64,000 bases of DNA, taken from the NCBI RefSeq assembly GCF_030144855.1, contig NC_082721.1, positions 27,404,001 through 27,468,000 of the forward strand. Reading direction: 5' to 3'. This DNA comes from Hypanus sabinus (lineage: Eukaryota). Below the pieces are notes generated by a model, which had not been told where the DNA came from, made no database searches, and worked only from the letters and a program-made list of their open reading frames with translations. How positions within the stretch are numbered: position 1 is the stretch's first letter; each line of letters opens with the position of its first letter. Made by a program: the position numbers and the translations under genes. Below, in pieces: positions 15,340 to 23,891 of this stretch.

Positions 15340-15755
15340 GTTCTCCCCTTCCACCACCGACACTGCCCTCATCCATGTCTCCTCCATTTCCTGTACATCT
15401 GCCCTCACTCATGCTCCTACCATCATCACAGGGATAAGGTTCCCCCTGTCCTTACATACCACCCCACGAGCTTCCATATTCAACACGTTATTCTCCATAA
15501 CTTCCGTCATCTCCAATCCAAATGCACCACGTAGCACAACTGCCCTCCGCGCCCCCCCCCCCCCCACTTTCCATAGGGATCGCTCTCTATGTGACTCCCT
15601 GTCCACTCGTCCCTCCCCTTGATTTCCCTCCTGGCATGTATCCCTAGAAGCATAACAAGTGCTACACCTGCCCCTACAACTCCTCCCTCACCATCATTCA
15701 GAACCCCGAACAGCACTTCCAAATGAGGTGACATTTCACCTCAGAGTCTGCCGGG
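15340..15755 (+). mobile_element. Penelope-like element, left part (host of the Gypsy insertion)
   Basis: PPVLTYHPTSFHIQHVILHNFRHLQ motif; sequence resumes colinearly at 20138. Confidence 0.75.
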
Positions 15756-15969
15756 TGATGCACCATCAATAACTCACTCTGAGACGTAAGGCGAGATATC
15801 GGCTTTTATTGACTGGAAGAAGGAACCAGGAGTGAGTGTCCATCATACTATGTCCTGGAGACTGAGGCCGAGCGTCAGGCCTCAGATCGCCTTTATACAG
15901 GGGCCTGTGGGAGGAGCCACAGGAGCAGTCAGCAGGGGGCGTGTCCAGACAGGCACATAGTTCACCACA
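15756..15969 (-). repeat. 3' LTR
   Basis: Direct repeat of 19924-20137; preceded on the minus strand by PPT AAAGGGGGGGTGAA. Confidence 0.97.
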
Positions 15970-16014
15970 TTCACCCCCCCTTTGTTTGAAAGAGTCCCCA
16001 TGTGGCGAAGTTTC

Positions 16015-18694
16015 TTACAAGTCAAGTCTATCAGGTGGTCGAATCTGTCGCTGCGATCTACATAGCACCGGCTGTGATCGCATGGATGCCGGCGACATTG
16101 GTGATTGCACAGGGGACAGAGGTTGCGCTTGTTCCTGCCCACTAGGCGCTGGTGATCCCTCACGCATGTGCGAGGCGCCTGGTATAAATGCGTACGAAAC
16201 GCCCGGTATACAAGTGTCGTGAGGAGTCTGTGTAGGGCCTGGTGAGTACGGTGTCACCTCTGGTGCAGGGTTCATAGTTACCGGAGAGCCTTCAGGGTAG
16301 TGGTCTGCTGCACCTGCGGGTGCCAGGTCGCGGATGGAGACCGTGTCCTCCCGCCCATCAGGTAAGACCACGTAAGCATACTGGGGGTTCGCATGTAGAA
16401 GGTGAACCCTCTCTACCAGCGGGGAGTATTTATTGCTCCTCACGTTTCCGGAGCAGCACTGGCCCCGGGGACATCAGCCAAACTGGTAGGGTGGTCCCAG
16501 TGACAGACTTCCTGGGAAAAGAGAATAGGCGTTCGTGAGGGGTGGCATTGGTGGACGTACATAACAGAGAGCGGATGGAGTGCAGTGCCTCAGGGAGTAC
16601 CTCCTGCCATCGAGAGACCGGCAACCCTTTTGACTTAAGGGCTAAAAGTGTGGCCTTCCACACTGTGGCATTCTCCCGCTCCACCTGGCCATTACCCCGG
16701 GGATTATAACTCGTGGTCCGACTGGTAGCAATGCCCCTAGCTAGCAAGTACTGGCGCAGCTCCTCACTCATAAAGGAGGACCCTCTATCGCTGTGGATAT
16801 AGCAGGGATACCCGAACAGAGTGAAGAGCTGGCGCAGGGCTTTTATGACGGACGTGGCAGTGGTGTCGGGGCAGGGGATGGCAAAGGGGAACCGTGAGTA
16901 CTCGTCGATAACACTGAGAAAATAGACATTGCGGTCAGTGGAGGGAAGGGGGCCCTTAAAGTCAACACTCAGTCGTTCAAAAGGGCGGGTGGCCTTGACA
17001 AGTTGTGCCGTGTCAGGACGGTAGAAGTGCGGTTTGCACTCAGCGCAAATTTGGCAGTCCCTGGTCATCGTCCTGATGTCCTCCAGGGAGTATGGCAGGT
17101 TCCGAGCTTTCACAAAATGGTAAAATCGGGTGACCCCTGGATGGCAAAGTTGTGCATGAAGGGTGTACAGCTGGTCGAGCTGTGTGCTAGCACATGTTCC
17201 CCGGGATAGGGCATCAGGGGGCTCATTGAGTCTGCCAGCCGGTAAAGGATATCATAGGTGTAGGTGGAGAGTTCTATTCTCCACCGCAAAATCTTATCAT
17301 TTTTGATTTTGCCCCGCTGTTGGTTGCTGAACAGGAACGCAACCGAGCGCTGGTCGGTCAGCAAGGTGAACCTTTTGCCAGCAAGATAGTGCCTCCAGTG
17401 CCTAACAGCCTCCACTATGGCCTGGGCTTCTTTCTCCACCGCGGAGTGCCGAATTTCGGAGCCTTGGAGGGTGCGAGAAAAGAATGCTACCTTCCTGATT
17501 GAGGGTAGCAGCCAGAGCAAAATCAGAGGCATCACACTCCACTTGGAAGGGAGCGGTCTCGTCCACGGCATGCATCGTAGCTTTGGCAATGTCCTCTTTA
17601 ATGCAGCTGAAGGCCGCGCGGGCCTCAGCAGAGAGGGGAAACGAGGTAGACTTGACCAGGGGGCGTGCCTTGTCTGCGTAATGGGGGACCCATTGGGCGT
17701 AATAGGAAAAAAACCCCAGGCACCGTCTGAGGGCCTTGAGAGTGGTGGGAAGAGGGAGTTCTAACAGGGGGCGCATACGTTCGGGATCAGGGCCAATAAC
17801 CCCGTTTTCCACGACATACCCAAGTATAGCAAGGCGGGTGGTTCCAAACACACACTTGTCCCTGTTATAAGTAAGGTTCAGAGCTGCGGCCACTTGGAGA
17901 AATCGTTGGAGGTTGGCGTCGTGATCTGGCCTGTCGTGACCACAGATGGTGATGTTATCCAGATAGGGAAATGTGGCCTGCAGTTGGTACTGGTCCACCA
18001 TCCGGTCCATTTCCCTCTGGAAGACAGAGACACCATTCATGACACTGAAAGGGACGCGCAGGAAGTGATAGAGCCTGCCGCCCGCCTCGAAGGTGGTGTA
18101 GGGGCGGTCCTCTGGGCAGATGGGGAGCTGGTGATAAGCGGATTTCAGATCTATTGTCGAGTACACCTTGTACTGAGCTATCTGGTTGACCATATCCGCG
18201 ATGCGGGGTAGGGGGTACGCGTCAAGCTGCGTAAACCTATTGATGGTTTGACTATAGTCCACCACCATCCTATTTTTCTGCCCAGTCCGAACAACAACCA
18301 CCTGGGCCCTCCAAGGGCTTGAGCTTGGCTCAATGATCCCCTCCCTGAGCAGCCGCTGCACCTCCGACTGAATGAAGGCCCTGTCCCCCGCGTTGTACCT
18401 CCTGCTTTTAGTTGCCACAGGCTTACAGTCAGGGGTCAGGTTGGCGAACAGCGGTGGGGGAGGGACCTTGAGAGTGGAGAGGCTGCAAGTGGTGTCGGTA
18501 GCACAGCTGTCGGCCTGGTTCTGGATGGGATGTGTGTGCCCGTGTGTGTGTGTGTGGTCAGTAGCAGGGTATGTGAAGAAGTCCCACAAAACTGAGGATT
18601 CCTGACAGTGAGTGGTGGGAGGGGCCCGTCGTATACCATAGTCACACTTTCGAGATGGCTCTGGAAGTCCAGCCCCAATAGCACGGGTGCGCAC
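16015..18694 (-). pseudogene. Gypsy pol (RT, RNase H, integrase) split by frameshifts
   Basis: RMVVDYSQTINRF, DLKSAYHQ, YLDN, ECDASD, EKEAQAI, TDQRS, SVDFKGP…IDEYSRF…HSDRG…NGQVER, and C-terminal GPVLLRK…ANPQYAYV. Confidence 0.92.
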
Positions 18695-19897
18695 AGATCA
18701 GGCATGACCAGCAGCTCAAAGTTCCGATATTCTGTGCCTTGCACCACCAAAGTCGCTACACAACCCGCCCGGATGTCTGCGGACTGCGACCCAGAAGCCA
18801 AATGGAACCTCCGACTTACCGGCCGCGTTGCAAGTCCGCAGTGTTGCACGTTGCAGTGCTGCCCGTGTCAAACAGGCATCTAGTCCGGTGCCCCTCCACC
18901 CGGATGTCCATCATGGACCTTGCAAGCTGGTGTGGGGCGCTTTGGTCGAGGGTTACAGTGGCCAGAGTTGAATCGCCGTCTTGGTACCCGGTAAGCATCG
19001 GAGGGTCGGGGGCGGGGCGTGCTGACGCCGACAAAGTTGGCTGCCCACATCCGGGCATGCAAGATGGCGGCCCCCACGTCTCACCTGCAGCGCTGCACTC
19101 CGCTCGAGGTTGAGACTTACAGACCTTGGCGAAATGGCCCCACTTTCCGCAGCTGGAGCAGGTCGCTTCTCGCGCTGGACAGCGTTGTCGAGGGTGTTTT
19201 TTTGGCCACAGAAATAACAAAGCACAGGCATCTGACGGGCTGCCGCTGTGGTCGGGTTCGGGGAGCTCGTGGAATCGCGACTGGCAGCGGCGTTGGCGAA
19301 TTCGCTCCCAGGAGCCGGCGGTGGCGGGGTCTGAGGTGTCCATGGAACCGGTGGGGAATCGCGCGACTGGACAGCGTCAGCATTATGTAAAGCAGCTTCC
19401 AGAGCGTTGGCCTTCTCGATCGCCGAGCGTAAGGTAAGGTCGGCATTTTCCAGCAGACGCTGGCGTATGTACACTGACCTCAGTCCCGTCACAAAGGCGT
19501 CTCGCACCAGCAGCTCCGCATGCTGTTCTGCCGTGAGCGTCTTGCAGTCACAAGCTCGGACGAGTGTCTGTAGTGCTCGGAGAAACTCAGCGCACGATTC
19601 GCCAGGCCGCTGTTGCCGGGTAGCTAAACGATGTCTTGCGTAGACGGTGTTCACCGGCCGCAGGTACTGTCTTTTGAGGGCGTCCAGTGCCCCATCGTAG
19701 GTCGGCAGGTCCCGGATAATGGAGTAAACTTTGGGGGTGACCCTCGAGAGTAGGATTCTGTGCATAACAGCGGGTTCAGTTGCACGAACCTCCTCCAAGT
19801 ACGATTGGAAGCATGCAAGCCAGAGTTCAAAAGCGAGAGCTGCGTCAGGGTCTTGAGGGTCCAAATCCAACCGGTCCAGACGCAAAACGGTTTCCAT
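18436..19897 (-). pseudogene. Gypsy gag and aspartic protease (frameshifted)
   Basis: Gag ATG at 19897; zinc knuckles CYFCGQK-HPRQRC and CSSCGKWGHFAKVC; protease LFDTGST and LLGLDF. Confidence 0.9.
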
Positions 19898-19923
19898 GTT
19901 TTAAAACTTCCAGTCAATAAAAT

Positions 19924-20137
19924 TGATGCACCATCAATAACTCACTCTGAGACGTAAGGTGAGATATCGGCTTTTATTGACTGGAAGAAGGAACCAGGAG
20001 TGAGTGTCCATCATACTATGTCCTGGAGACTGAGGCCGAGCGTCAGGCCTCAGATCGCCTTTATACAGGGGCCTGTGGGAGGAGCCACAGGAGCAGTCAG
20101 CAGGGGGCGTGTCCAGACAGGCACATAGTTCACCACA
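19924..20137 (-). repeat. 5' LTR
   Basis: 214 bp; minus-strand TATAAA at 20060-20065 and AATAAA at 19973-19978. Confidence 0.97.
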
Positions 20138-20565
20138 CTGGGGTCACCTACTTCCCAGTGCTCCTGGTGTGGCCCCCTCTGGTGCAAACTGGGGGACCAC
20201 CGGGTTGAGAATCTTTGCTCTGTCCGCCGAAAGTGGCTGGATCTCGCTGCATCTACCCATTTCAATTTGACCCCATTGCTTTTCAGACCTCCTTGACTGC
20301 CATAATGAGGCCACACTCGGACTGGAGGAACAACACCTTATACCCTGTCTGGGTAGCCTACAACCTGATGATATGAACATCGATTTCTCCAACTGCCAGT
20401 AATTTCTCCTTTCTTCCTCCTTCTCTTTCCCAATCTTCTTACTCTGGGTTCTGCCCCCTTCTTTTCCAGTCCTGATGCAGGCTCTCGTCCCAAAATATTG
20501 ACTGTTTATTTCCCTCCATAGATGCTGCCCGACTCGCTGAATCCCTCCAGCATTTTGTGTGAGTT
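20138..20565 (+). mobile_element. Penelope-like element, right part
   Basis: GIY-YIG region remnant, EEQHLIPCLGSLQP, and a degenerate pLTR (cctgatgcag…gatgctgcccgactcgctga). Confidence 0.75.
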
Positions 20566-23500: not shown

Positions 23501-23604
23501 CTAATTGCTTTGAAGAAACAAAACGGCTCATAATGTGGGGTCCTGAGGAAACTTGAAAATCCAGCTCCGCTTTGAGGCTTTGGTTATCTTGACGGCCATG
23601 CTGA

Positions 23605-23891
23605 TGAGGGGAAGATGGGGCGCGGACATGTTAGTGAGGGGAAAATGGGTTCGCGGACATGTTAGTGAGGGGAAAATGGGTTCGCGGACATGTTAGTGAG
23701 GGGAAAATGGGTTCGCGGACATGTTGGTGAGGGGAAAATGGGTTCGCGGACATGTTGGTGAGGGGAAGCTGGGTTCGCGGACATGTTGGTGAGGGGAAGC
23801 TGGGTTCGCGGACATGTTGGTGAGGGGAAGATGGGTTCGTGGACATGTTGGTGAGGGGAAATGGGTTCGCGGACATGTTGGTGAGGGGAAG
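23605..23891. repeat. 31-bp minisatellite, 9 copies plus a partial copy
   Basis: Unit TGAGGGGAAAATGGGTTCGCGGACATGTTRG. Confidence 0.95.

Follow-up and report, generated by a model that had tools for sequence, protein, structure and literature searches.

In the available portions of the papers cited here, self-priming of reverse transcription is worked out only for the retrotransposon Tf1, in which the RNA's initial 11 bases serve as primer after a cut by RNase H (PMC7175516). A three-duplex structure is common to the Tf1/sushi chromoviruses (PMC10085805, PMC4600332), self-priming has been predicted for Tcn1 and for the TAR copia elements (PMC6317226), and further elements without a tRNA site have been described (PMC5445492, PMC6934838). 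About half of the Tf1 cDNA retains a single-stranded tail at the primer site (PMC11042837). Like Tf1, Tf2, Tj1, the Tf1/sushi chromoviruses and plant Tcn1 (PMC7175516, PMC10085805), the element that we describe here is of the Ty3/gypsy type, has a primer site complementary to its own LTR and not to a tRNA, and would depend on a cut that frees the primer. Whereas the primer of Tf1 consists of the first 11 nt and is held in a 'pretzel', the corresponding LTR arm is here 13–20 nt long, lies, for the subfamilies of the host genome, about 23–48 nt from the predicted start of the RNA, and ends in a poly(A) hexamer. Unlike the Tf1/sushi elements, ours has no chromodomain, and its reverse transcriptase (RT) falls in a clade separate from the SH3_Tf2-bearing elements of the host genome. 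The TAR elements (Houba, Osr-1) are likewise predicted to self-prime outside the chromoviruses, so that independent origins are already accepted (PMC6317226), but they are plant elements of the copia superfamily, and the available text of that paper makes no link to a poly(A) signal. For HIV-1, a stem-loop (the poly(A) hairpin) is proposed to suppress the poly(A) signal of the 5' LTR, much as the stem described below may do (PMC12789967). The stem of HIV stays local to R/U5 and its primer is a tRNA, whereas in the present element it is the primer site that would act as the masking partner. In the literature searched, which excluded subscription journals and the Repbase and GyDB entries, no self-priming is described in a non-chromovirus animal gypsy clade, and the available passages of PMC3601003, PMC5341516, PMC6238403 and PMC8556966 hold nothing on the priming of the clade treated here.

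The window, by which we mean the whole 64,000-nucleotide stretch of Hypanus sabinus DNA analysed, carries on its minus strand an element of 4,382 nt (~4.38 kb) with two LTRs (Table 1). This is a young Ty3/gypsy LTR retrotransposon. The LTR pair has 1 mismatch in 214 nt, the target duplication is 5 bp long with one mismatch, and the hallmarks of the group are present (TG...CA LTRs, a polypurine tract and a short target duplication). The seven open frames of the window copy follow the gypsy order gag–protease–RT–RNase H–integrase by Pfam, with the gag and protease matches lying under the curated cut-offs, and in other genomic copies the frame is uninterrupted, with about 1,327 aa. Gag begins with an ATG at 19897, 9 nt away from the stem discussed below. 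The 4.04-Gb host genome holds 7,031 candidate family copies, and the 150 of these that were scored have a gag identity of 93–100%. The closest named proteins are from stingrays and devil rays. About 90 aa of the window element's gag are also found inside a protein of a devil ray whose annotation is telomere bouquet protein 1 (P0026), reflecting either a gene-model artefact or exonisation. Two family members (L397, L398) sit in contigs filed as bacterial genomes; these contigs are probably animal DNA in bacterial bins. Elsewhere in the window, a tandem array with a 31-nt period lies at 23577–23886.

Table 1. Features of the element, in window positions.
Feature	Position	Strand	Remark
TATA box (TATAAA)	20060..20065	-	32–34 nt upstream of the initiator (Inr) in most copies of the own-genome subfamilies
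Hairpin between TATA and Inr	20030..20053	-	confound for Inr stops in the young family
Initiator-like motif; predicted start A 20031	20027..20033	-	from TATA spacing and stops of antisense extensions
5' LTR	19924..20137	-	214 nt, TG...CA
LTR arm, putative 3' end of self-primer	19972..19987	-	poly(A) hexamer at its end
RCC directly past arm, candidate cut-site mark	19969..19971	-	conserved, 19/22 representatives
GGT in loop, candidate RCC partner (short second helix)	19930..19932	-	GGY in 19/22 loops; weak in single copies
Spacer, one base, between LTR end and primer site	19923..19923	-
Primer-binding site, arm complement	19907..19922	-
gag-protease-RT-RNase H-integrase region	16015..19897	-	several broken frames in window copy
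Polypurine tract	15970..15983	-
3' LTR	15756..15969	-	own arm copy at 15804–15819, without primer site downstream
Left target-site copy	20138..20142	-	matches 15751–15755 at 4/5
Right target-site copy	15751..15755	-

A preliminary description of this locus had reported that no tRNA-type primer-binding site follows the 5' LTR and that the sequence there is instead a perfect 16-nt complement of a stretch inside the LTR, closing a 49-nt loop. Both statements hold. A single A separates the CA of the LTR from the primer site, where TGG is absent, and the arm and the primer site are complementary at 16/16 positions with 49 nt between them. This pair is the longest perfect inverted repeat among the 31 pairs in 15600–20300, and the stem that it forms is present both in the minimum free energy (MFE) fold and in the centroid fold of the 181-nt leader (−60.2 kcal/mol, z −3.69, 0/200 shuffles as good). 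The arm terminates in AATAAAA. Compared with the three-duplex pretzel, the predicted leader fold has inner loop helices and shows no pairing of the loop with sequence 3' of the primer site. The second, 7-bp hairpin that had been proposed (attgatg/catcaat) is there in the sequence, but it does not appear in the predicted fold and was not seen in distant families.

A primer site matching a host tRNA or tRNA fragment would point away from self-priming. Against 44 distinct host tRNAs, representing 11 anticodons, the best match of the primer site was 6 nt, or 1 nt if anchored at the 3' (CCA) end, and a search of 19700–20200 against Rfam returned nothing relevant (1 match, E 3.5). As a control, 6/6 DUF7041 elements read in the host genome have a TGG site and only 4–6 nt of self-pairing. 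The SH3_Tf2-bearing elements of the host genome (L251–L257) are also without a TGG site; in L254, one of the six that were read, a complement of 11 nt lies 187 nt upstream, and in the rest the complement is 5–8 nt long. It is nevertheless conceivable that half a tRNA, or another tRNA fragment, is the primer and that the match to the LTR is a by-product, given that half-tRNA primers are known in copia lineages (PMC6317226, as far as available) and that the tRNA sample covered only the 11 anticodons. We regard this as very unlikely, in view of the short matches, of the Rfam result and of the fact that the primer site changes along with the LTR arm inside one genome. Because the site is complementary to the element's own LTR and not of the tRNA type, elements of this clade will appear to have no primer site in tRNA-based annotation.

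The arm and the primer site are strongly conserved among close copies. A stem of at least 16 nt was present in 30/30 of the closest copies, and among 45 distinct young copies we found distinct substitutions in 0/16 columns of the arm and 1/16 columns of the primer site, as compared with 20 substitutions in the 49 columns of the loop and 64 in the 136 columns upstream. In older subfamilies of the host genome, 7–8 letters are altered jointly in arm and primer site, and at least 7 paired arm/primer-site variants exist within this one genome. The comparison was extended to 80 metagenome loci, 11 of which were dropped for want of a gag start or upstream DNA, and the 69 usable ones were clustered together with 31 own-genome loci at 75% gag identity, giving 16 families. 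In 14/16 families, with gag identities as low as 36%, at least one member shares the register of the helix; on our reading, it is present in 57/69 usable metagenome loci, 29/31 own-genome loci and 2/2 further loci. Among 22 representatives, which were picked for showing the helix and seven of which come from one family, so that the counts are not independent, the mean pairing of an arm with its own primer site is 14.1 nt versus 4.9 nt across families, and at least 12 nt is reached in 10/462 of the cross pairings. CAA precedes the primer site in 21/22 of the same representatives, and the conserved RCC and GGY (Table 1) recur among them, the GGY against 9.4 in shuffles. For several full-length relatives we could confirm the LTR ends as well as duplications of 5 bp.

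For single A+T-rich loci, the helix score is frequently no better than the best of 20 shuffles; the case for the helix rests on its fixed register and not on single-locus scores. The preliminary description had proposed testing related families for compensatory covariation, and in diverged relatives the pairing is indeed conserved with changed letters. We conclude that the pairing of arm and primer site is real and conserved, and that it very probably functions in priming. Two loci at the base of the clade have no helix, their basal branching having weak support in the RT tree. In one of the two (L102:1–30) a TGG stands one base after a CA, the putative LTR end; this element may use a tRNA primer and represent the ancestral state. 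In a set of seven loci (L031, L042, L052, L056, L059, L033, L036), one stem position occurs in four arm/primer-site combinations (two paired, one wobble, one mismatch), and all four are expected if heteroduplex primer sites segregate.

With regard to lineage, RT identity is 54–64% to most of the distant relatives, 43–48% to two long branches, and about 25–32% to the SH3_Tf2-bearing and DUF7041 elements of the host genome. In an RT tree of 34 rows, from which RT matches of <170 aa were left out, 22 rows form a clade with support 100/100, apart from 5 SH3_Tf2 and 7 DUF7041-type rows; these are stand-ins from the host genome labelled by Pfam domain, with no named Tf1 or sushi sequence included. 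From their domains, we take the SH3_Tf2-bearing stand-ins to be 'sushi-like' and the DUF7041 stand-ins to be 'CsRn1-like'. A pol search retrieved 1,285 proteins among 7,999 candidates, and the 120 relatives listed include many single frames of about 1,200 aa. In agreement with the preliminary description, which had seen no chromodomain, none was found by Pfam in the 7 open frames of the window or in the Pfam lists of these 120 relatives. By chromodomain, RT grouping and position of the primer in the predicted RNA, the clade appears to lie outside the Tf1/sushi group. Named relatives among the matches listed come from sea anemone, nematodes, mussel and catshark, and the Atlas annotation of the clade reads only 'retrotransposon gag'. 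These elements, 4.0–4.5 kb long with frames of about 1,200 aa, resemble Cigr-1 of Ciona, which we take to be a 4.2-kb single-frame gypsy element with a Mag-like gag. The Mag and MolGy clades of gypsy are named in the available passages of PMC6238403 and PMC8556966, in which primer sites or PBSs have 0 occurrences, and the RT motifs that we sought in 4 of the 5 supplements of PMC6238403 for naming the clade gave no match.

Next to the conservation of the helix, the position of the arm relative to the RNA 5' end matters for how priming could work. In the subfamilies of the host genome, the distance from Inr to arm ranges from about 23 to 48 nt. Because the TATA–Inr spacing is fixed (Table 1) and the Inr–arm spacing is variable, we predict the start at the A of the initiator, 44 nt upstream of the arm. 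The TATA box thereby lies upstream of the arm as previously described, while the distance from start to arm, put at about 50 nt in the preliminary description, is 44 nt. The fixed TATA–Inr spacing, together with the copy scars at Inr described below, supports the earlier proposal that the pairing arm is downstream of the start and not at the RNA 5' end. In the host-genome group, the arm would thus be internal to the predicted RNA; in most of the distant families, neither TATA nor Inr was seen. RNA evidence was taken from small shares of 17 runs, as Logan contigs, four of which were compared with the element. The contigs of these four runs revealed neither RNA ends nor the strand. A primer built by splicing is unsupported, as no splice joint inside the LTR was present in them.

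We put the probability at roughly two in three that reverse transcription is primed by the element RNA's own 5' fragment, after a predicted cut near the 3' end of the arm. In this model, deduced from the DNA, the RNA would start at 20031 and carry the arm 44 nt inside. The arm would pair with the primer site, which is present only behind the 5' LTR, so that AAUAAA would be hidden at the 5' LTR and stay free at the 3' end. An enzyme, by analogy with Tf1 presumably the element's own RT/RNase H, would cut either where the arm ends or as much as about 6 nt within the arm's A-run. The front fragment of roughly 60 nt would then prime about 50 nt of minus strong-stop DNA, and this DNA would jump to the RNA 3' end by way of the short piece of R that remains behind the cut. 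Plus-strand synthesis would then copy the primer and, meeting no modified-base stop, could reach the primer 5' end. If the primer is an element RNA that extends beyond the duplex, this copying can run past the 16 nt of the primer site, and the resulting tail, being complementary to the LTR, may give rise to many fold-back and mis-transfer copies.

Aberrant copies of this kind are indeed common. About 2,200 exact junction matches were found in the host genome for the young, abundant family, and an exact pattern in which antisense LTR follows the LTR end and the primer site has 276 matches versus 1,923 for the normal junction; reversed control patterns gave 0 places. We read the first 90 loci of the 276, which contain 91 junctions. 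The extension reaches the LTR start and then passes into host DNA in 45/91, goes past the LTR start in 22/91 (clearly so in 14, into the polypurine tract and 3' internal sequence), and ends at LTR position 100 or higher in another 22/91, four of which merely have a primer site that is 3 nt longer; the remaining 2 end in between. The copies L289, L335, L347 and L349 are otherwise normal, and their primer site, longer by 3 nt, is still complementary to the LTR, possibly reflecting a replicating sub-lineage or slippage. Extensions to the LTR start (45/91) need only fold-back of plus-strand DNA, and the 14 that clearly run past it require a 3' arm or longer DNA as template. Plain inversion of the whole interior after insertion was seen in 0/5 long cases read at 10 kb.

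Other extensions stop inside the LTR. In the young family, 5/9 stops between LTR positions 6 and 139 fall at 103–111, around the Inr at 107 (p 1.4e-4 versus uniform), which had been named as the expected stop site before the stops were counted. In this family the foot of a hairpin lies at the Inr, with a DNA fold of −9.3 kcal/mol in the window copy versus −1.7 to −5.4 kcal/mol in six older copies, and for this reason the older subfamilies were searched too. Here the Inr is 40–45 nt from the arm end, and 30 of 32 extended places were read. Twenty of the 30 continue into U3. Of the rest, one has no extension, in one an insertion intervenes, and two end no more than 10 nt from the arm; among the 6 that remain, 4 stop within 3 nt of the Inr and are followed, as judged by eye, by sense internal sequence. 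Leaving out far ends that lie about 10 nt or less from the arm, or that reach or pass the LTR start, we count 15 internal stops in both sets combined, and 9 of these are no more than 4 nt from the predicted start, 40–60 nt upstream of the arm end. Alternatively, a plus-strand end that anneals to a second, intact RNA could produce the Inr stops, as could the −9.3 kcal/mol hairpin in the young family. Read-through copies show no excess of scars at Inr (9/84 versus 17/97 ordinary LTRs).

The other end of the putative primer was sought in rearranged copies with a sense-U5 tract. Copies whose sense LTR is complete (beginning at LTR position 20 or lower) were set aside; of the other such tracts, 17/52 begin at LTR 160–170, around the arm end at 166 (p 3e-9, for an interval chosen after the data were seen), and 1/52 begins at LTR 100–114, near the start site. 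Several junctions retain 3–6 nt of the A-run or show microhomology, which maps the putative cut to a few bases and not to a single bond. A second cluster of junctions (12/52) lies at LTR 177–185 (window 19953–19961), in the inner loop hairpin and approximately at the expected position of the poly(A) site. With stops at the Inr and junctions at the arm end, the copy scars agree with a primer that has the RNA start as its 5' end and the arm as its 3' end, and with a template ending at the arm.

The same scars bear on whether the primer might instead be another copy of the arm, either that of the 3' LTR or a short LTR transcript acting in trans, trimmed to the duplex and placed on an uncut 5' end. 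Such a primer would be expected to produce the same covariation, the Inr would likewise be the 5' end of a short LTR transcript, and the 14/91 extensions that pass the LTR start and enter the polypurine tract and the 3' internal region speak for it. On an uncut 5' end, however, tracts of minus polarity should reach the start site, whereas the tracts begin there in 1/52 and at the arm end in 17/52; a primer from the 3' LTR has no end at the Inr, where 9/15 internal stops fall; and the conserved RCC directly past the arm fits a recognised cut better than trimming. We therefore consider another arm copy an unlikely primer. The preliminary description had left the source open between cleavage and the 3'-LTR copy, and it is cleavage of the 5' copy that agrees better with these counts, the 3'-LTR copy less so.

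The poly(A) signal offers a further function for the stem. AATAAA or ATTAAA lies in the arm, in at least one member, in 11/14 families; two of the others have minor variants and one has none. A pattern search for the poly(A) site in the host genome returned a single place; this is a solo LTR whose A-run is internal. Masking of the 5' signal is attractive because the partner of the arm is found only behind the 5' LTR and because the hexamer is so frequent in the arms; judged from these sequences it is plausible, though not universal, one family being without an arm hexamer. In L119 and L127, both of this family, the helix is 15–17 nt long and the arm has no poly(A) hexamer, and in L081, of another family, the hexamer is in the loop.

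Could masking be all that the stem does? Hiding the 5' signal, or regulating gag translation, might suffice for its conservation if some host RNA or protein provided the primer. The frequency of the hexamer at the arm end, the occlusion of the HIV-1 5' signal by a stem-loop as described in the available part of PMC12789967, and the distance of 9 nt between stem and ATG are all in keeping with this. A masking stem, on the other hand, has no need for a partner placed exactly 1 nt past the CA of the LTR, as it is in 21/22 representatives, nor for the helix that L119 and L127 keep without a hexamer in the arm or that L081 keeps with the hexamer in the loop, and an outside primer would need to follow many unrelated primer-site sequences. 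To us this makes a purely regulatory stem quite improbable.

Priming by the RNA's own 5' fragment, which remains our preferred reading, can be stated more broadly, and we do so tentatively, at somewhat less than even odds. A large animal gypsy clade may have acquired self-priming independently of Tf1, with one helix that hides the 5' poly(A) signal and in which a cut at or within this signal yields a capped leader of 40–60 nt as primer; the cost would be that about 1/8 of LTR/primer-site junctions in the host genome are fold-back or mis-transfer products, fossils that map the start and the cut. The suggestion of a distinct self-priming system is sustained to the extent that this would be a variant of Tf1-type self-priming, and not a new category. 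If true, an internal primer would operate in an unrelated and widespread animal clade, with the cut placed by structure and not by the RNA 5' end, and priming would be tied to the choice of poly(A) site. Since the family is young and abundant, the predicted start at 20031, the cut near 19971 and the strong-stop DNA of ~50 nt are testable in tissue RNA.

Lastly, the extended junctions point to the source of a group of inverted-LTR mini-elements. Six of these (L272, L306, L312, L338, L340, L351) are 378–404 nt long and combine a full LTR with the primer site and with U3-R in inverted orientation. All 6/6 mini-elements checked have a 5-bp target duplication and two U3 ends, and because of these duplications they look like integrase products of a fold-back.
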